Shown here: positions 11,157 through 44,420 of the stretch, one piece after another
How positions within the stretch are numbered: position 1 is the first letter of the stretch
Layout of the letters: each line of letters opens with the position of its first letter
Assembly: GCA_013334965.1 (NCBI GenBank)
Contig: JAAXWO010000010.1
Location: 22,522-86,521, forward strand
DNA length: 64,000 nt
Source of the DNA: Chlorobiaceae bacterium
GTDB lineage: Bacteria > Bacteroidota > Chlorobiia > Chlorobiales > Chlorobiaceae
Direction: 5' to 3'
Position numbers and translations under genes: made by a program
The notes under the pieces: model-generated
Database searches by the model: none
The model's input: only the letters and a program-made list of their open reading frames with translations
What the model was told of the DNA's origin: nothing

Positions 11157-11171
11157 GATATATTTTTTATA
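11157..11171 (+). repeat. attL core GATATATTTTTTATA
   Basis: Identical 15-mer at 35516-35530; about 185 bp upstream of the integrase. Confidence 0.88.
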
Positions 11172-17785: not shown

Positions 17786-18517
17786 ATGACAACTGACGCT
17801 GCGCCCCTTGCTGCTGATCCTGTGATCAGCGCCCCTCAAGCTGACAGCGAAACCCTTTCCGCTACTGAAACAAACAATCCCTTGAAAGAGCTTGTAAGCG
17901 GCAATGGCAGCTATTCCCTACCGAAGCTCATACAGCTTTATCAGGAAATCGAAGAGGCGCTTATACAGTCTGGCGGACTGGCCGAATATGGTGATCAGAT
18001 GGCCATTGCTGATGACAAGATCGAGCAGAAGCTCGACAATTATAAAGGGCTGATTGATTACTGGAAAGGCCAGATTGCGTACCTGGACGAAAAGGAAAAG
18101 ACCTACAAGAACCGTAAAGTCAGCATCAAAAACGGTATCGAGTGGCTGAGAGGAACCATGAGGGTTGCCATGTTATGCACTGGAAAGCAGAAGATCAAGA
18201 CGGTCGAAGGCACCTATTTTTTCAAGGATCCATTAAAACCGTTGAAGCTCATACCTGAGCTCATTACCGCGAAATATGATGCTGCCCTGAAACGGCTTGA
18301 CATGAAAAAACACTCGGTCATCATCACCTTCCCCTCAACGCTTGACGGTGAATACGAAAAGCTCGCAGAACAATTGACAACCGCGGTGCCCGGAAGTTCA
18401 TGGCGCGTTTCGGATCCGGAATATGACCTTGATGCAATGGCAAACAGATGGCTGCAGGGAAACCGAAACCTGCCGCCGTTTCTCAAACAGGAAGAAAAGA
18501 CATTCAACATCCGTTGA
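17786..18517 (+). CDS. Siphovirus Gp157 / Mu Gam-like protein
   Basis: Long helix with KLDNY..LI...K......L.EKEK....RK....N.IEWLR..M pattern and KIKT..GTYFF. Confidence 0.7.
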   Translation: MTTDAAPLAADPVISAPQADSETLSATETNNPLKELVSGNGSYSLPKLIQLYQEIEEALIQSGGLAEYGDQMAIADDKIEQKLDNYKGLIDYWKGQIAYLDEKEKTYKNRKVSIKNGIEWLRGTMRVAMLCTGKQKIKTVEGTYFFKDPLKPLKLIPELITAKYDAALKRLDMKKHSVIITFPSTLDGEYEKLAEQLTTAVPGSSWRVSDPEYDLDAMANRWLQGNRNLPPFLKQEEKTFNIR

Positions 18518-18532
18518 GAAAACAATCATCAC

Positions 18533-18557
18533 AAAGCCCGGTCCAGTGCCGGGCTTT
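18533..18557. terminator. Terminator hairpin
   Basis: AAAGCCCGG-N7-CCGGGCTTT. Confidence 0.7.
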
Positions 18558-18599
18558 AATTTTACTGATTCTTCCTGTATCTTTCAGGAAATTTAATAC

Positions 18600-19016
18600 A
18601 TGAAGCTCGATAACACCCGCATAAAAAAGGTCCTGCGCCTGATTGCCGATGGTAACACGATCGGCAACGCCTGCATTCTGGCCGGGGTGCATCGCGCGAC
18701 CTATTACCGCTGGCTCGATGAAGGGCGCAAGCATGCCGAGGATGCCGAACGGCGCATTCAGGCGCTCATCGATGCCGGCACGCCGGAAGATCAGATCAAG
18801 CCGGAGCTCCCGACGCTGCAGATGCAACTGCTCGAAGGCGTACCGGAGGCGCAGGCGAGGAGCGAGGCGACCCACCTGAAGAACATCAGAACTGCGGGAA
18901 AAGACGATTGGAAGGCCTCCGCCTGGTTCCTAGAGCGGACGCGGCCGGAGCGGTATGCGCGGCGCGTTGTCTCACCGGAGGCGGAGCAGACGGACGAGCT
19001 GGTTATCATTGGATAA
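18600..19016 (+). CDS. Putative terminase small subunit (HTH)
   Basis: IADGNTIGNACILAGVHRATYYRWLDEG HTH and DWKASAWFLERTRPERY C-terminal motif seen in TerS-like proteins. Confidence 0.7.
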   Translation: MKLDNTRIKKVLRLIADGNTIGNACILAGVHRATYYRWLDEGRKHAEDAERRIQALIDAGTPEDQIKPELPTLQMQLLEGVPEAQARSEATHLKNIRTAGKDDWKASAWFLERTRPERYARRVVSPEAEQTDELVIIG

Positions 19017-19019
19017 GTG

Positions 19020-19046
19020 AAAAGTCCCGGGAGTGCCGGGACTTTT
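19020..19046. terminator. Bidirectional terminator between convergent genes
   Basis: AAAAGTCCCGG-N5-CCGGGACTTTT. Confidence 0.75.
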
Positions 19047-19049
19047 GTT

Positions 19050-19544
19050 TCAGATGAAAGATAGTTGATTGGAGACAAACCGCCACCCGCCGACGAGCGG
19101 ACCGAGCCTCACCGGCTCCCACTTGCCACCCCATTCCGGCAGCTCCACCTGCCCGAACACGACGATCGGCACACCGATGCCGACAGCATAAGCCGCCGTT
19201 GCCCAGGTGCCCGAGCCGGATCCATTGAAGCAAGCGCTTGAGCTGCCGGAAGGCACAAGGCGAGCAGGACAAGGAGCAGATGGATAGGCGGCGAGCGCAA
19301 CCCAGCCGCGCGACTCCTTGCAAGCCTTGACCATGGCCACGGAGCGGAGCGCAAAGGCCCCCGGCCCGCTGCCCTCGACCCTGAAAACCTCTGCCCCTGG
19401 CACAACGTTACGAACGGCCGCATCGATGCCGGAAGCGCAGCCGACCGCCACCGGTATGCCGTACCCCGCGATAATGAGCGCTGCCCGTTGAGCTGCTGCT
19501 ACCTGCGCGCCAGACGGCCGCCGTGAACCTGTGAACCCGACCAT
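19050..19544 (-). CDS. Stand-alone SLOG-superfamily (DprA/Smf-like Rossmann) protein
   Basis: VGFTGSR, VGCASGIDAAV, FALRS.AMV and GSGSGTWAT..YA motifs; start may be up to 19619. Confidence 0.75.
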   Translation of the reverse strand: MVGFTGSRRPSGAQVAAAQRAALIIAGYGIPVAVGCASGIDAAVRNVVPGAEVFRVEGSGPGAFALRSVAMVKACKESRGWVALAAYPSAPCPARLVPSGSSSACFNGSGSGTWATAAYAVGIGVPIVVFGQVELPEWGGKWEPVRLGPLVGGWRFVSNQLSFI

Positions 19545-19576
19545 AAACCACCTCTTTGTTTTGATGTTGCCGTTTA

Positions 19577-19715
19577 AAACCTTTCCCCGGGGGGATAGAG
19601 GCCTCCCCATGACGGGCAAACTCTCATGTCAAGGGCGCGCAGCGGGCGAAGCCTTTACCCTTTACATGAGAGGCAAACCGGCATATCTTTGGCCGGGCCA
19701 CCGGGGAAAGTGGTT
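19577..19715 (+). promoter_or_regulatory. Long imperfect hairpin containing TTTACA-N17-TATCTT; candidate ssDNA promoter
   Basis: Stems 19581-19590/19701-19710 (10/10) and 19621-19635/19658-19672 (14/15); -35 at 19661, -10 at 19684. Confidence 0.55.
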
Positions 19716-21800
19716 CAAGTCCGCGAAGCGGGTATGACTTATGCCAGCGCAGCGGAACGCTCTTCATCAACTTTATCGCTTACCGCCGGAGGCAATCGTG
19801 GAGGGTTTGGCGGGCCGCTTGCCTGCAGTTCCTGCAAGCGGCATGACAAACCCGAAGCTCCCGCGCGCTGGCGCGTCTTTTTGCTTTCCCCACCGCACAA
19901 AGCGTGACAGCGCGCCCGAGCGCTCCCCATGCCGGCTTGCCGGCCATATCGCCCCCCGACGCTCCCCATGCGCTGAGCTGGCGCGCTCTTTCCCTGTTGC
20001 GCGCCTGCTGAGCGCCATAGCGCCACCGCTGGCACAGCCACAAAACAGCACGAGCACCGGCCGCCTGGCGCGCTTGTTGCCTGAGTTTTTGCAACAAGCG
20101 TGACAGAATAGCGGCGGGTGCGGGGAGACGGATCAACAGCATGACGACGAGTAGCACGGAGAAAGCTGGCTTGTGCGCGCCAGCGGCCGTTTGCGCGCGC
20201 GCCAGCGTGACGGGATTGACGACCGCCTTGCGGACGCGCCTGCGCGGCCGTGTGGCGGCATGATATTGGCCAAACAACCCTCAACCGCTGATATTAGCGC
20301 CTGATGCCCCTGGCGGGCCGCTTGCGTGGCGTTCGGCAAGCGGCATGACAGGAAGGCATGAGGCGCGTAACGGAGCAAGATTGAACCTCGCCGACCTCCC
20401 GACGAGATTTCCTTTCCGGCTGTACGGCAATTCATGGAGCGCAGCGGCGCGCCTCGGTAGCAAAGCGGACGGGCGCGGCAAGTGGAGCGGAATGGATTGA
20501 CGCTCTGCCGGCATGAATACCGAGACAGTGCCACGTGAACCACAGATAAGGCAAAGGCCGCGAACCGCAACGTAGCGGGGCGAATGCAGTCCGTAGGGCA
20601 TAGAGAGGAACGAACGGAGCCCGAAGGCGCAATGAGAGAGCGGAGTGAGGACGCGCAAGGCTTTTGCCTGTAACGGATCGAGATAGAACCTTGACAGCCT
20701 CCCGACGAGATTTCCATTCCGGCTTGCTCCTCGCGGCGCGCCTGGCCGGGCTTGGCTTTGCCGGCGCTCCTGCCGGAGCGTTTTTGCGGCGCGTGGGCGG
20801 GTGGGATGGAGCGCCGCGCGAGTCCCCGCGCCGGCGACGCTCTTCATCGCCTGAGCGCAATTGCCGCAGCGGAGTGAGCCGAGGGAGCGTGCGCAGCGGA
20901 AGCGAAGAGGCGAAGGGAGCGGAGGCTGTTGTGCGCTGGCGGTTTGGGCCCCGGCGAGCCGCCGGGGATTGGCGGAGCATGAAGGCGCGGAAGGAAGGCG
21001 GACAGCAGCCGCGCCGCACGCGATCGAGCGGGCGGTCCTGCACGCGGATGCTGTCCGCCGCCGCGCCTTGATGCGGAGCCCAAGCGGAGCGCCATAGGCG
21101 TGGAGCGCGACGCGTTTTCAGTGCGTGAGCGCGCGGAGCCGGTAGCCGAAGGGCGTGGCGACAGGAGCGAGCAGTTCCGGCTTGCCGGAGCGCGAGCGGA
21201 TGGAGTGCCCGCAGGCTATCGGCGAGCACGGCTTACGCCATGCCCCGAGCGCGATCCTCGCCGGAAGCAAGCAATGGCTGGCGCCCGACGCAGCATTGCG
21301 CGAACAGCGCGCGGCGGGTGTCAGCCGTTGCGAAAGGTGGGCGGATGGCGTGAACTTCGCCTGCGGGCCGGCGTGGCAGTGAGCCGCTGCGCAGGAGCTG
21401 CGGCGGAAGCGGCGGCACTGGCAGCGGCGAACGGGGAGGGCGGGCGATGCGACGAAGGAGCGAGGACGCGCGAGCCGCGCCGGGCATGGCATAAATAGCG
21501 AAAGCCGCTGCGCCCCTACGGTTTTGCGGCTTTCTAAGTGTGGCAGAAAACTTGCGCCTTCTGTTGTACACCATTTGAATTTACATTTTTCCATCATTAT
21601 TACATCGCCCTCCAGCTATTTTTTGGACATCATCGCCAAATATGCGCGTGCTGCGCACCGTAGCGCAGAGAGGAGCGAAGCGGGAGAGGCTGAGCGAGCT
21701 TGCGAGCGAAGCCCGGACGCGAAGACGACGAACGAAGTGGAGAGCGCAAAGCAGACGCGGTCAACACGCTTGCCAATCTAAGCTTTCAGCGACCAAGGAC
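19626..21800. other. GC-rich structured non-coding tract A
   Basis: No credible ORF; at least 12 plus-strand GCGNAGC motifs; many short hairpins. Confidence 0.6.
20367..20724. repeat. Imperfect 55-bp direct repeat pair (20367-20421, 20670-20724)
   Basis: GTAACGGA..AGAT.GAACCT.G.C..CCTCCCGACGAGATTTCC.TTCCGGCT in both copies. Confidence 0.85.
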
Positions 21801-40856: not shown

Positions 40857-43800
40857 CTACTTTATCCTCAATTTTGAGAGTTTGGCTTCCGGTGACAACG
40901 GGTAGATATGGATAACGTCCTTGTACCGTGAGTTCGCATTGACAGCATCACCGATCTTTTCGAATGAAATCGCCTGTTTGTATAGTGCTGCCGGACGCTT
41001 GCCATGCTTTGTGTATTTCGCTATAACCACCTGATATTCAAGAATGGCCTTTTCATACCATTTCTCGTTGAAATACGATTCAGCGATATAAAACTGCGCA
41101 TCACCGACCTGTGGAGATTTGGGGTTTGCCGCCATGAACGCAATAAAGTTGTCACGCGCACCGGAATAATCTTCATTCTGCAGCTTATCCATACCTGCCC
41201 TGAAGAAAGCATCATTTACCGCGTCGGATACGACAGGATCAGATTTTGGAGCAGAGGTTTTCTCAATTACAGACACCGCAGGAGCTGCATACGGCAAAGA
41301 TGGTTCGACAACCTTTGGGGCTGTTTTGTAGCGCGGATCATTGTAACGCTGAACAGGCTCAGCCGAAGCAGGTGCTGTTATCGGCACAGGTGTGTCAACC
41401 GATGCCAATGATTCTGCCGGTTTCGGCGAAGCAAGGGCAGAAGATGATGACTTGACAGAAGCCTCAGCCTGTTTTGCGGCCCATCTGGAGCGCCAGTCTT
41501 TGCGTGCCTGGGCAGCTGATACCGGCGCCGCTGCCATTGCGGGTTTTTCTAAATATTTAGGAGCTGACACAGGAGATGGCGCCATTGTCGGAGCCGAAGT
41601 CTCTACCTGAGCAGGAGATGCAACTGGAGCGTCTGACTGCTTTGCTGTCCATTTTGAGCGCCAGTCTTTGCGCTCCTGGACAGCTGGAGCTGGTGTCGCG
41701 GCTATTGCGGGTTTTTCTAAATATTTAGGAGCTGACACAGGAGGTGGCGCCATCGTCGGAACCGAAGTCTCTGCCTGAGCAGGAGATGCTACTGGAGCGT
41801 CTGACTGCTTTGCTGTCCATTTTGAGCGCCAGTCTTTGCGTTCCTGGGCAACTGGAGCTGGTATCGCGGCCGAAACAGGCGCGACAATCGATGCAGGAGT
41901 TTTTTCCACTTTCGGGGAGAGCGACGCTGACGCAACTGCAGGAGCTGAAACTTCAACTGGCGATGGTGATGCTGCCGAAACTGGCGATGAGACAGGAGCA
42001 TCGGCTTTCTTTGCTGCCAACGCGGTTCGCTTATCCTTGCGTCCTGCCGGGCTAGCAACTTCGAGAGGAGCCGCAACTACTGACAAAGCTGGCTTTTCTT
42101 CCGGTTTTGGTGAGAGCAGCGATGACGCAACTGCAGGAGCTGAAACTTCAACTGGAGATGGTGATGCTGCAGAAACTGACGTTGACACTGAAGCATCGGC
42201 CTTCTTTGCTGCCCACGAGGTTCGCTTATTCTTGCGCCCTGCCGGAGTTGCAACTTCGAGAGGAGCCGCAGCTACCGATAATGCAGGCTTTTCTTCCGGT
42301 TTTGGGGAGAGCGGCGATGAGGCTACTGCAGGAGCTGAAACTTCATCTGGCGATGGTGACGCTGCCGAAACTGGCGATGACAAAGGAGCGTCGGCTTTCT
42401 TTGCTGCCAACGCGGTGCGTTTATCCTTGCGCCCTGCCGGGCTTGCAACTGCGAGAGGAGCCACAGCTACCGATAATGCAGGCTTTTCTTCCGGTTTTGG
42501 GGAGAGCGGCGATGAGGCTACTGCAGGAGCTGAAACTTCATCTGGCGATGGTGACGCTGCCGAAGCTGGCGATGACGCAGGAGCATCGACTTTCTTTGCT
42601 GCCAACGCGGTGCGCTTATCCTTGCGCCCTGCCGGGCTTGCAACTGCGAGAGGAGCCGCAGCTAATGACAATGCAGGCATTTCTTCCGGTTTTGGGGAGA
42701 GCGACGATGAGGCAACTGCAGGAGCTGAAACGTCAAGTGGTGATGGTGATGCAGACGAAACTGACGATGACAAAGGAGCGTCGGCTTTCTTTGCCGCCCA
42801 TCTGGAGCGTTTATCCTTGCGCCCTGCCGGGGTTGTGGCGGAAACCGGAGTAGAAGTTTCAGCTACTGCAGGAGCAGCAAAAGGTGCAGATACCACAGCA
42901 GGAACAGGTACTTCTCCTGGGGCAGGCAATGCGACAGGAGCCTGAGAAGAATTTGAAGGAAGAGCATCAACCTGCTTTGCCGACAAATCAGAAACGCTCT
43001 CCTTGCGGATTTGGACGACCGGCGCAGGAGCCTCGACTACTGCAGGGGTTACCGACTGTTCAGGATGTATGACAGGTGCAGACGATACGACTGGCGCCGA
43101 AACATCTGCCGGCACAGGTGATACGACTGGTGACGGTACAGAAGCAGACACAGGAGGCTCCGCCTTTTTCCCTAACATTTTAGAGCCCTTGTCCTTGCGT
43201 GCAGGGATACCTGCAGCTGGTGCTGCAACCGGAGCAGGGGCATCTGTTAATGCAACTGTTTCGGATAATGCCGGAGCAGAAACAGAAATCAATCCTGAAC
43301 CTGCACTCAGTAACGGAGTATAAACCTTAACTGGCGCAAATGCGGGCTTTTCTGACAGGGTAACCGGCGCAGGAGCTTCGAAGACTGCCGGGGCGGCTGC
43401 TGGTTCTGGTATCGCAACCGGCGCAGGGGCTTCGACAACCGCCGGGGCGGCTGCTGGTTCTGGTATCGTAACCGGCGCAGGGGCTTCGACAACAGCCGGG
43501 GCGGCTGCTGGTTCTGGTATCGCAACCGGCGCAGGGGCTTCGACAACCGCCGGGGCGGCTGCTGGTTCTGGTATCGCAACCGGCGCAGGGGCTTCGACAA
43601 CCGCCGGGGCGGCTGCTGGTTCTGGTATCGCAACCGGCGCAGGGGCTTCGACAACCGCCGGGGCGACTGCTGGTTCTGGTATCGCAACCGGCGCAGGGGC
43701 TTTGACTACTGCCGGGGCGACTGCTGGTTCTGGTATCTCAACCGGTGCAGGGGCTTTGACTACTGCCGGGGCGACTGCTGGTTCTGGTATCTCAACCGGT

Positions 43801-44420
43801 GCAGGGGCTTTGACTACTGCCGGGGCGACTGCTGGTTCTGGTATCGCGGAGGGAACAGGTGTTCCTGGCTTGGCCGGTTTGACTGATGTGTTCTGTATGG
43901 AGCCCTTGACCGGCGTCTTAACCTTGACCGGTTCAGGCACTGGCTCAGGCGCTACTGCCGAAGGCGTCACTTTTGGCTTGACTGGTGCGGCAACTGGTGC
44001 AGGGGCGGGTTCCGGAGCAGCGACGGGAACTGGCGCATTGATAGCAGAAGGGGAAGAAAGATTCGCCGCTTTTGCTGCTGCGGCCTTCTGCATCATATCT
44101 TCCATGCCGATATACTGCTCTATTCTCTTGAGGCGTTTCTCAAGCTCGATGCTTTTTCTGACAAGGAGTGAGTCCTCTACATCTTGACGATTGATGGTTT
44201 GCTTATAATCGTGCCGCAATTCACTGATACCTCCGAGCAACGACGCCAACTCCTCACGTTGCTGGGTCATCTCCGAATAGGAGCCTGCCGATTGGGACTT
44301 TATTACCTGCGACTCTTCCTTGAGCTGGGCTACCTGGCCCTGGACGTAGGTCAGGTCGTTCTGGGTTGCACATGCTGAAAGCAACACGAAAGGGAGAAAC
44401 AGCAGTGGTCTGGTTTTCAT
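40857..44420 (-). CDS. cpoB: Tol-Pal protein CpoB/YbgF with about 950-aa Pro/Ala-rich repeat insertion
   Basis: Lipobox LSAC, N-terminal coiled coil, C-terminal TPR (AQFYIAESYF..KWYEKAILEYQ.VI); last gene of the tol-pal cluster. Confidence 0.8.
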   Translation of the reverse strand: MKTRPLLFLPFVLLSACATQNDLTYVQGQVAQLKEESQVIKSQSAGSYSEMTQQREELASLLGGISELRHDYKQTINRQDVEDSLLVRKSIELEKRLKRIEQYIGMEDMMQKAAAAKAANLSSPSAINAPVPVAAPEPAPAPVAAPVKPKVTPSAVAPEPVPEPVKVKTPVKGSIQNTSVKPAKPGTPVPSAIPEPAVAPAVVKAPAPVEIPEPAVAPAVVKAPAPVEIPEPAVAPAVVKAPAPVAIPEPAVAPAVVEAPAPVAIPEPAAAPAVVEAPAPVAIPEPAAAPAVVEAPAPVAIPEPAAAPAVVEAPAPVTIPEPAAAPAVVEAPAPVAIPEPAAAPAVFEAPAPVTLSEKPAFAPVKVYTPLLSAGSGLISVSAPALSETVALTDAPAPVAAPAAGIPARKDKGSKMLGKKAEPPVSASVPSPVVSPVPADVSAPVVSSAPVIHPEQSVTPAVVEAPAPVVQIRKESVSDLSAKQVDALPSNSSQAPVALPAPGEVPVPAVVSAPFAAPAVAETSTPVSATTPAGRKDKRSRWAAKKADAPLSSSVSSASPSPLDVSAPAVASSSLSPKPEEMPALSLAAAPLAVASPAGRKDKRTALAAKKVDAPASSPASAASPSPDEVSAPAVASSPLSPKPEEKPALSVAVAPLAVASPAGRKDKRTALAAKKADAPLSSPVSAASPSPDEVSAPAVASSPLSPKPEEKPALSVAAAPLEVATPAGRKNKRTSWAAKKADASVSTSVSAASPSPVEVSAPAVASSLLSPKPEEKPALSVVAAPLEVASPAGRKDKRTALAAKKADAPVSSPVSAASPSPVEVSAPAVASASLSPKVEKTPASIVAPVSAAIPAPVAQERKDWRSKWTAKQSDAPVASPAQAETSVPTMAPPPVSAPKYLEKPAIAATPAPAVQERKDWRSKWTAKQSDAPVASPAQVETSAPTMAPSPVSAPKYLEKPAMAAAPVSAAQARKDWRSRWAAKQAEASVKSSSSALASPKPAESLASVDTPVPITAPASAEPVQRYNDPRYKTAPKVVEPSLPYAAPAVSVIEKTSAPKSDPVVSDAVNDAFFRAGMDKLQNEDYSGARDNFIAFMAANPKSPQVGDAQFYIAESYFNEKWYEKAILEYQVVIAKYTKHGKRPAALYKQAISFEKIGDAVNANSRYKDVIHIYPLSPEAKLSKLRIK

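Follow-up and report, generated by a model that had tools for sequence, protein, structure and literature searches.

Why would a mobile element that carries terminase, portal and capsid genes keep some 2 kb of GC-rich DNA in which no gene is apparent? The question is raised by a stretch of 64,000 nucleotides (hereafter the window) from a Chlorobiaceae bacterium (assembly GCA_013334965.1, contig JAAXWO010000010.1, positions 22,522 to 86,521), whose 2.48-Mb genome of 54% G+C was assembled from a biofilm metagenome. The DNA concerned, Tract A (window positions 19626-21800), lies within an integrated phage-like element. An earlier reading of the letters alone (the sequence-only reading) had taken it for a region without open reading frames (ORFs), marked by a GCGNAGC mini-hairpin motif, and had proposed that it is either a large structured DNA, comparable to the leading region of a conjugative plasmid, or a giant structured non-coding RNA.

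Here we compare Tract A with related loci of Chlorobiaceae. It is best explained as an expanded copy (about 1.9 kb) of a composite cis unit of mobile elements in this family, consisting of a 5′ domain, a hairpin array and a terminal motif; all parts of the unit in Tract A lie on the plus strand (Table 1). The reading that we favour, at a probability of about one half, is that the unit is a single-strand initiation (ssi) or promoter region. It would work in the manner of Frpo, which Masai and Arai reportedly described in 1997 as a single-stranded-DNA promoter of the F plasmid, and of related ssi sequences.

Tract A is a conserved non-coding element

A search with the DprA-like protein encoded beside Tract A led to two phage-like contigs of IMG/VR (L008 and L009), whose homologs share 54-56% amino-acid identity with it. 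In each of these contigs a tract of 70-74% G+C lies directly upstream of the DprA-like gene, and the three tracts are collinear over 19572-21244. A three-way alignment of the left 840 nt gives 79% identity in aligned columns, compared with 70% nucleotide identity for the adjacent DprA-like gene, and the differences between Tract A and the other two consist mostly of the gain or loss of whole modules. The conserved element begins at about 19575, upstream of the boundary first drawn at 19626; the true start of the DprA-like gene (MVGFTGS), set by comparison with L008 and L009, is at 19544.

Tract A is indeed ORF-less, since its nine longest ORFs have no Pfam match, even at E 0.1, and only 5 of 31 and 9 of 33 insertions and deletions relative to the homologous tracts have lengths that are multiples of three. 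Its plus strand is 55% purine. The G+C content of 65%, against 54% for the genome, and the many long Arg/Ala-rich ORF shadows would suit decaying foreign high-GC DNA or pseudogenes without function. Conservation above that of the adjacent gene, the compensatory pairing described below and the recurrence of the modules in about a quarter of Chlorobiaceae genomes make such an origin extremely improbable, and they exclude functionless junk DNA. Two patterns had been named as speaking against the sequence-only reading, frame-preserving conservation of a protein and neutral decay without conserved motifs or pairing; we found neither. Judged by these comparisons of sequence, Tract A is a real, non-coding element under selection.

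The GCGNAGC motif is a poorer guide to the element than had been supposed. All 12 plus-strand and three minus-strand copies reported for 19626-21800 were recovered. The plus-strand count compares with 4.8 ± 2.1 expected from 1000 dinucleotide shuffles, two of which reach 12, and the minus-strand count is as expected; in a second GC-rich tract at the right end of the element (Tract B, 34440-35400) there are ten plus-strand copies and none on the minus strand, against 2.2 expected. Over the whole window the 63 copies show no enrichment (55 ± 7 expected), and the signal is one of clustering in the two tracts. Across the genome, the density in Tracts A and B is matched only by an unrelated array of tRNA fragments on another contig. 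The motif is no organising signature but a side effect of purine-rich GAGCG/GGAGC runs and of a small number of conserved tri-loop mini-hairpins; it is only mildly enriched, and the composite unit is the real signal. The tRNA-fragment array, the third GCGNAGC cluster of the genome, sits at the end of its contig (C14, about 42000-43921) and is made up of tandem tRNA 3′-half fragments (..GGTTCGAATCCTACTCGCGGAGCCA..) interleaved with three copies of one small GIY-YIG-like ORF.

Known families offered no match. The Infernal comparison with Rfam that had been suggested returned nothing relevant for Tract A at the gathering score or at E values up to 10, a scan for tRNAs and transfer-messenger RNAs found none, and blastn against phage records gave no match. 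An exact-pattern scan of 185,579 genomes with CCGCGAAGCGGGYATGAC yielded mostly chance coding matches (peptide REAGMT), with genuine ones in Chlorobiaceae only. A DNA search of the element's own genome with Tract A did not find a second copy. A clustered regularly interspaced short palindromic repeat (CRISPR) array, a retron and a diversity-generating retroelement were also considered and dropped, as there are no matching repeats and no reverse transcriptase.

Structure of the 5′ domain

Model R2 of the 5′ domain finds about 55 copies in 35 of 123 Chlorobiaceae genomes, with scores of 100-220 bits. Among 34 aligned copies, compensatory changes occur in 12 of 33 pairs and 97% of the cells are paired, which none of 500 shuffles matches. 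The closing helix is TTCCCCGG/CCGGGGAA, with a hairpin (GGGGGG..TCCCC) inside it; in the long arm, stem 2 (ATGACGG/CCGGCAT) is followed by an internal loop in which GGCAAAC occurs twice, and then by stem 1, of 15 bp. The stem of the mini-hairpin (Table 1) flips CG/GC in other copies, with compensatory change in three of its four pairs, and tri-loops closed by C-G belong to an especially stable class of loops in DNA.

One pair of stem 2 is GC in 14 copies, UA in 13 and AU in three, and columns 21/31 are GU in 24, GC in eight and AU in two. Because this near-invariant G.U alternates with G-C and A-U, it points to the plus strand as the folding strand; the DNA folding energies of the two strands (-45.4 vs -42.4 kcal/mol) are uninformative in this respect.

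The sigma-70-like hexamers of the 5′ domain are placed such that the -35 lies within the 3′ arm of covarying stem 1 and the -10 is unpaired at the junction. Other 5′ domains that retain this segment read TTGnnC-17/18-TAyCTT, with TTTCTT in the phage-type copies of L008 and L009; these are weak hexamers. The arrangement suggests a geometry like that of Frpo and marks the 5′ domain as a candidate promoter. The covarying stems reach upstream of any start that the hexamers would direct, so that the pairing is not explicable by an RNA made from them.

The GGCAAAC direct pair (19614-19620 and 19674-19680) flanks stem 1. In 5′ domains of the type found in integrative and conjugative elements (ICEs), a third, inverted GGCAAAC occurs in the spacer of about 36 nt before the RadC start codon. 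These repeats could be the operator of a protein.

The hairpin modules and the terminal motif

Downstream of the 5′ domain, Tract A carries four copies of a second type of hairpin, a module of 45 nt. In the covariance model of this hairpin (R1, built from 16 copies), 8 of the 16 pairs show compensatory changes, none of 500 shuffles reaches the observed covariation, and 88% of the cells are paired, against 26-44% when the partners are slid. R1 finds about 100 copies in 32 of the 123 genomes; they are clustered, and at nearly every locus the clusters are one-stranded. The consensus is nYTGGCGnG-N4-TTGC, a loop of 9-12 nt, and GCAA-N4-CRTGACARn, with two invariant non-Watson-Crick positions, a GxA opposite the second G and a G.T two positions on. 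On the folding strand the loops are 73% pyrimidine (T 45%, C 28%), which suits them as a template for purine-initiated RNA. A CsrA-type GGA sponge was dropped on account of these pyrimidine-rich loops, and intrinsic terminators for the neighbouring operons were dropped because there are no flanking A or T runs.

The 5′ arm of the hairpin reproduces the -24/-12 consensus of sigma-54 promoters (position weights T G G C G n G-N4-T T G C), and the duplex ends directly after the -12 GC, at the loop. The spacing between GG and GC is N10 in 55 of 71 distinct copies (77%), N11 in 12 and N12 in three. The hairpins always have TGGCG, whereas the canonical sigma-54 sites of the genome have TGGCACG (consensus TGGCAC-N5-TTGC). 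The genome encodes rpoN and six enhancer-binding proteins, none of the six on the contig of the window. The pattern GGCn[C/G]G-N4-TTGC occurs 57 times genome-wide on both strands; Tracts A and B, 3.2 kb in all, account for six of them, each on the plus strand.

Two further sites of this kind lie outside the hairpins. The canonical sigma-54 site TGGCACGGTATTTGC at 37331-37345 (plus strand), about 570 nt upstream of dnaK (Hsp70) at 37914, is one of only nine TGGCAC-N5-TTGC sites in the whole genome. A lone sigma-54-like TGGCAGAAAACTTGC at 21541-21555 stands in the AT-rich spacer of Tract A.

The terminal motif recurs with 90-93% identity in mobile elements of three other genomes (G090, G097 and G128), where it lies at the distal end of each unit. 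Both a head and a tail of the unit are thus defined.

Genomic context and orientation

The unit keeps a fixed orientation to establishment genes of mobile elements, with which it is associated. An ORF on the opposite strand starts within about 60 nt to the left of the 5′ domain in 29 of 33 cases (one is 220 nt away). About 20 of these partners are RadC-like (about 165 aa), four belong to the 'MEVYQVG' family, the partner in the window is DprA-like, and in the two viral contigs small ORFs take this place. R1 hairpins follow within 450 nt downstream, on the same strand, for 18 of 30 5′ domains. Hairpin clusters, too, have their first credible 5′ gene on the opposite strand wherever the locus was inspected. 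In the annotated contexts, the corresponding gene 5′ of the unit is RadC-like, DprA/SLOG-like or one of the genes in ArdC/SRAP blocks. The MEVYQVG family, the second commonest partner of the 5′ domain (L175 9519-10022, L195, L201 and L205), is conserved, 167-170 aa long and without a Pfam match; it is a candidate establishment or anti-defence gene.

Among these loci are an island with ArdC, RadC, SRAP and UmuDC (L048), a chromosomal region of ICE type (L184) that has genes for TrbI, CagX, RadC and type I restriction, and a plasmid locus with TrbI, CagX, RadC and a TOPRIM/DUF3991 primase (L180). The last of these is pPAES01, a plasmid of 66.8 kb from Prosthecochloris aestuarii DSM 271 (NC_011061.1), which is typed as conjugative, MOBP and MPF_T. 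Its relaxase, TraG, Trb, primase, SRAP, ArdC-like, thermonuclease and JAB/RadC genes are on the plus strand, and both the 5′ domain and the hairpins are on the minus strand. According to the rule for RP4 and MOBP plasmids, transfer leads away from the relaxase operon, and by this rule the minus strand of pPAES01 is the predicted transferred strand and the template of those genes. On this plasmid, then, the elements lie on the strand predicted to be transferred, as is the case for Frpo/ssi; the element in the window offers no basis on which to define such a strand.

At about 18100-19300 of pPAES01, directly after the TOPRIM/DUF3991 primase gene, there are three tandem repeats of about 395 nt, each with one hairpin in which a CTGC top replaces TTGC. 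Two 'hypothetical proteins' recorded on these repeats, and an ORF over the 5′ domain at 32815-33081, are probably spurious.

The likeness to a leading region that had been proposed for Tract A gains comparative backing from these relatives, whose surroundings in conjugative plasmids and ICEs abound in establishment and anti-restriction genes. That such DNA is unexpected inside a packaging element also holds: at least five phage-like loci carry the hairpin array, and three of these have the 5′ domain too. A pac site was dropped as an explanation, since these hairpins are also found on a plasmid whose annotated part lacks a terminase gene.

A proposed single-strand initiation region and its alternatives

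The element is conserved, paired and strand-specific, and it is associated with neighbouring genes in a set orientation. We infer that single-stranded DNA would be its active form, and likewise which enzyme may read it. The unit would act when the plus strand is single-stranded, which in plasmids and ICEs would follow conjugative entry; in phage-like elements, a single-stranded stage might arise through rolling-circle replication, recombination- or ERF-dependent replication, or competence-like uptake. The folded 5′ domain would present a duplex with the sigma-70-type -35 and spacer and leave the -10 unpaired, that is, it would form a fork-junction promoter like Frpo. Host RNA polymerase would start an RNA on the folded strand and read leftward into the opposite-strand gene, which is DprA/SLOG-like here and RadC-like in most copies, with ArdC/SRAP blocks 5′ of some hairpin arrays. 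This RNA could double as the primer for the complementary strand, and the hairpin modules would be further single-strand signals, perhaps loading sites for polymerase or primase. Such a mechanism would explain the fixed orientation to the neighbouring gene, the predicted transferred strand on pPAES01, the several same-strand copies per element, the pyrimidine-rich loops, and the covariation upstream of the hexamer-directed start.

A number of observations weigh against this explanation. No relaxase was seen among the scanned ORFs of the phage-like element, several of which have no Pfam match; the element's contig was not searched specifically for relaxase or type IV secretion genes. For an element with terminase, portal and capsid genes, a single-stranded form is hypothetical. 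The comparison with plasmids that the sequence-only reading had called for (blastn of 19572-20360 against 72,556 plasmids) gave one insignificant match of 40 nt and no similarity outside Chlorobiaceae. At the variable stem positions of the hairpins, G.T is about as frequent as A.C (7 vs 5), so that wobble statistics are no proof of which hairpin strand folds. The fixed order of many distinct modules over 1-2 kb would also fit a long RNA gene, and 2 kb far exceeds the promoter need of one gene of 165 aa; it is an oddity that the phage-like element keeps the largest unit before a single gene of this size, and a second array before vsr. The sigma-54 motif raises two further difficulties: in 23% of hairpins the spacing is GG-N11/12-GC, which is not tolerable for a true sigma-54 promoter, and the motif in the 5′ arm points into the loop, which in our judgement would make single-strand-templated initiation geometrically awkward.

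Because of the direction of the motif and the off-spacing in about a quarter of the copies, a sigma-54 role of the hairpins is kept out of our core claim. It is unlikely, though the sigma-54 resemblance is too precise to be set aside, that the hairpins are promoters or binding sites of sigma-54 RNA polymerase that only the folding of single-stranded DNA completes. In duplex DNA the -24 element is not canonical in either orientation, each arm having a one-off version of it (TGGCGnG in one, the complement of TGTCAyG in the other). The folded stem would show the GG and the canonical T on opposite strands, and would end in a fork junction at -12, as a sigma-54 counterpart of Frpo; the enhancer requirement would perhaps be bypassed or re-used, and mobile elements would use such sites at entry. 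A primase-loading role of the hairpins is equally possible.

As to the choice first posed, a large, conserved, strand-specific and structured non-coding element has been borne out, and on sequence alone DNA is the likelier of the two forms. The main alternative, possible if less than likely, is a large (1-2 kb) modular structured non-coding RNA, a plus-strand transcript divergent from the neighbouring gene, with a role in trans (as a protein sponge or anti-defence decoy) or in cis (antisense or antitermination). Distinct modules in a fixed 5′-to-3′ order with a head and a tail, helix lengths that vary between conserved flanks, the near-invariant G.U of the 5′ domain with its G-C and A-U replacements, and a G.U plus a single purine-purine mismatch in every hairpin are all in keeping with an RNA. 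A possible plus-strand promoter, TTGArr-17/19-TCAAAT, ends at the boundary of the 5′ domain, the hairpin at 21498-21537 is terminator-like, and the structural genes of phage-like elements run along the plus strand; for the analogous STAXI motif, RNA was the form favoured by its authors (PMC2864571). Such a transcript would, however, be antisense to annotated conjugation and establishment genes in pPAES01 and L184, and the strict coupling to the start of a gene on the opposite strand, about 36 nt off, has the look of cis regulation. Rfam yields no matching family even at E 10, no RNA run contains Tract A, and the sigma-54 consensus in the stems would be left unexplained. Metagenome contigs labelled as RNA-seq cover a relative's gene and element alike, at a depth of 2-7 and without direction, and are uninformative; breaks in metatranscriptome contigs at the boundary of the 5′ domain are best explained as assembly breaks at a repeat.

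It is doubtful that the hairpins are an array of sigma-54 sites in ordinary double-stranded DNA, serving as enhancer-dependent rightward promoters (of the late operon in phage-like elements, antisense in plasmids) or as insulating roadblocks of closed complexes. The exact GG-N10-GC spacing in most copies, the rpoN and enhancer-binding protein genes of the genome and the six plus-strand motif copies in Tracts A and B are consistent with this proposal, as is the GxA mismatch, which makes the reverse copy TGTCACG and destroys its GG, so that a promoter is kept in one direction only. The covariation of the promoter spacer with its downstream complement, and the 5′ domain itself, would have no explanation, however; moreover, the contig of the window lacks an enhancer-binding protein gene, the plasmids offer no sensible downstream gene, and the N11/N12 variants are kept at orthologous positions. 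Very improbable, in our estimate, is a set of single-strand recombination or nicking sites (such as integron attC, the folded attP of CTXphi or HUH-nuclease sites) that mark a cargo hotspot. The hairpins resemble attC in their conserved bases, conserved unpaired positions and variable tops, variable defence cargo (NotI-like, PstI-like, ApeA) flanks the DprA-tract block in related phage-like contigs, and an inverted dif-like pair heads Tract B. This cargo lies outside the arrays, though, and none is found between hairpins, where the spacers of 60-250 nt hold conserved non-coding modules of their own; the hairpins have no consistent neighbour that encodes an integron-type integrase or HUH protein, dif-like sites are absent from Tract A, and in place of an attC core (RYYYAAC..GTTRRRY) or a dif-like pair the hairpin bases read CTGGCG..CRTGACAG.

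Other features of the element and the window

Table 1. Coordinates of the features discussed in the text (window positions)
Feature	Coordinates	Strand	Evidence and remarks
DprA-like/SLOG single-domain gene	19050-19544	-	Pfam DNA_processg_A, E 3.3e-5, under curated cut-off
5′ domain, closed multi-helix fold, about 175 nt	19575-19747	+	model R2, 157 bits; folding z-score -4.1
Sigma-70-like TTTACA-17 nt-TATCTT	19661-19689	+	9 of 12 matches to a sigma-70-type consensus, which may not be that of Chlorobiaceae
Tri-loop mini-hairpin CCGC-GAA-GCGG, then TATGAC	19721-19738	+	nearly invariant in homologs
Hairpin module 1, TGGCGGG-CCGC-TTGC / loop / GCAA-GCGG-CATGACA	19806-19850	+	R1 59.2 bits
Hairpin module 2, GG-N11-GC variant	19867-19911	+	R1 50.1 bits; orthologous copies in L008 and L009
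GCTGAGC-flanked hairpin GGCGCGC..GCGCGCC	19970-20020	+	conserved in L008 and L009, recognisable in the G097 mobile element
Hairpin module 3, TGGCGCG-CTTG-TTGC / loop / GCAA-CAAG-CGTGACA	20064-20107	+	R1 57.6 bits
Hairpin module 4	20309-20352	+	R1 57.8 bits, vs 18 bits for the reverse complement
Internal duplication of about 303 nt, copies 20367-20421 and 20670-20724	20367-20724	+	expansion relative to L008 and L009
Module: hairpin CCCCGGCG/CGCCGGGG, ATTGGCGGAGCATG, long variable hairpin (20977-21074), GATGCGGAGCCCAAGCGGAGC	20946-21095	+	
Terminal motif GGGCGGGCGATGCGACGAAGGAGCGAGGACGCGCGAG	21429-21469	+	diverged internal copy at 20629-20659
Terminator-like hairpin AAAGCCGC..GCGGCTTT	21498-21537		85% identical to the equivalent site of L009
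AT-rich spacer, then purine-rich GAGCG tail	21540-21800	+	similar GAGCG segment after the conserved hairpin in L009
Tract B, three weaker hairpin copies (34665, 34852, 35001)	34665-35050	+	R1 26, 24 and 21 bits

L008 and G005 each have one copy of the module at 20946-21095, and L009 has two; its inner hairpin varies in length and sequence, and its flanks are conserved. At the distal ends of four ICE-type units (L048, L072, L121 and L179) the DNA is AT-rich, with dense ATGAC, ACATG and TGACATGTCA repeats, and a weaker, ACATC-rich equivalent is found at 21560-21640 of the window. These repeats resemble iterons or putative protein-binding sites.

The integrated element around Tract A is about 24 kb long, with a 15-bp direct repeat at 11157 and 35516 as its limits. 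It begins with genes for a tyrosine integrase, ERF, RusA, an exonuclease and Gp157, followed by a gene for a small helix-turn-helix protein that resembles a small terminase subunit. Next come the DprA-like single-domain gene, which is the opposite-strand neighbour directly 5′ of the unit, and Tract A itself; these are followed by two minus-strand genes, one lipoprotein-like and one for a homolog of staphylococcal nuclease, by genes for a capsid-like protein, the large terminase and the portal, and by those for a Dcm methylase and Vsr. The lipoprotein-like neighbour, used as a query, found no related viral loci. In Tract B the hairpins are 5′-adjacent to vsr, which is on the minus strand, and the tract is headed by an inverted pair of dif-like sites (GCATAA-N6-TTATG, 34511-34586) with zero and one mismatch.

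In two contigs of IMG/VR 3300033432 (L010 and L011), different defence cargo flanks the DprA-like gene and its tract: one side has restriction-modification systems, NotI-like and PstI-like, and the opposite side has the HEPN protein ApeA. Given this cargo, the block of DprA-like gene and tract is a putative cargo hotspot between the small-terminase-like gene and the capsid genes.

Implications

What is known of early expression and priming from incoming single-stranded DNA comes mainly from a few Frpo/ssi sequences of enterobacteria. If the reading as a single-strand initiation region is correct, the Chlorobiaceae family would add two covariation-supported motifs from a different phylum and would extend the principle well beyond enterobacteria. 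The family is present in about a quarter of the sampled Chlorobiaceae genomes and is common to a conjugative plasmid, ICE-like regions and phage-like elements. The unit is also a sequence handle for establishment and anti-defence genes of these organisms, its commonest partners being RadC-like genes, SLOG/DprA-like genes and the 167-aa MEVYQVG family. Why an element packaged in capsids should retain 2 kb of such signals is a question that the family raises. Should sigma-54 polymerase read the stems, this would be a new mode of sigma-54 promoter use; should the unit be an RNA, it would rank among the larger structured bacterial RNAs without a known function.

Comparison with known systems

The hairpins resemble sigma-54 promoters in their elements (TGGC..G-N4-TTGC, GG-N10-GC) and in a duplex that ends exactly after the -12 GC, like fork-junction DNA. 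They differ from them in that the motif forms part of a hairpin in which two mismatches are invariant, has no evident enhancer or activator, and is off-spaced in 23% of copies. Another likeness is to the single-strand origins of rolling-circle plasmids and to the origin from which filamentous phages start their minus strand; in both, strand-specific hairpins mimic promoters, and host RNA polymerase thereby makes a primer on single-stranded DNA. Those origins, however, are single elements of 150-300 nt in rolling-circle replicons, and no Rep or HUH gene was seen here.

The radC (RF01754) and STAXI (RF01728) motifs are likewise conserved, structured and non-coding, often occur in tandem, and adjoin radC, anti-restriction, ssb and integrase genes of mobile elements. 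These motifs (PMC2864571) are abundant in ICEs of the MPF_G type (PMC5587801). The radC motif has been listed as a likely cis-regulatory element, and the describers of STAXI also raised the possibility of single-stranded DNA (PMC2864571). In contrast to the Chlorobiaceae element, both are proteobacterial or enterobacterial and have other structures (STAXI is a repeated pseudoknot), and neither the RF01754 nor the RF01728 model matches Tract A at the gathering score or at E values up to 10. A further difference from the radC motif is that the Chlorobiaceae element folds on the strand opposite to the gene.

The closest parallel is with Frpo/ssi. Frpo is a single-stranded promoter of the leading region in which the -35 lies in a stem and the -10 is unpaired or mismatched (PMC11541004). 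The Chlorobiaceae unit has no sequence similarity to it and a different fold; its 5′ domain is followed by a second type of hairpin, which is sigma-54-like and not sigma-70-like; it occurs also in phage-like elements in which no relaxase was seen, and in Tract A it is expanded to about 2 kb. Since there is no homology to the known Frpo/ssi sequences, we class the unit as one that would work like them and not as a member of their sequence family. The two may share a folded strand that rebuilds the -35 and -10 elements of a promoter. What they have in common is a position 3′ on the template strand of establishment and anti-defence genes, whose template is the transferred strand, as predicted for pPAES01, several copies per element on one strand, and anti-restriction, SOS-related and nuclease genes nearby.

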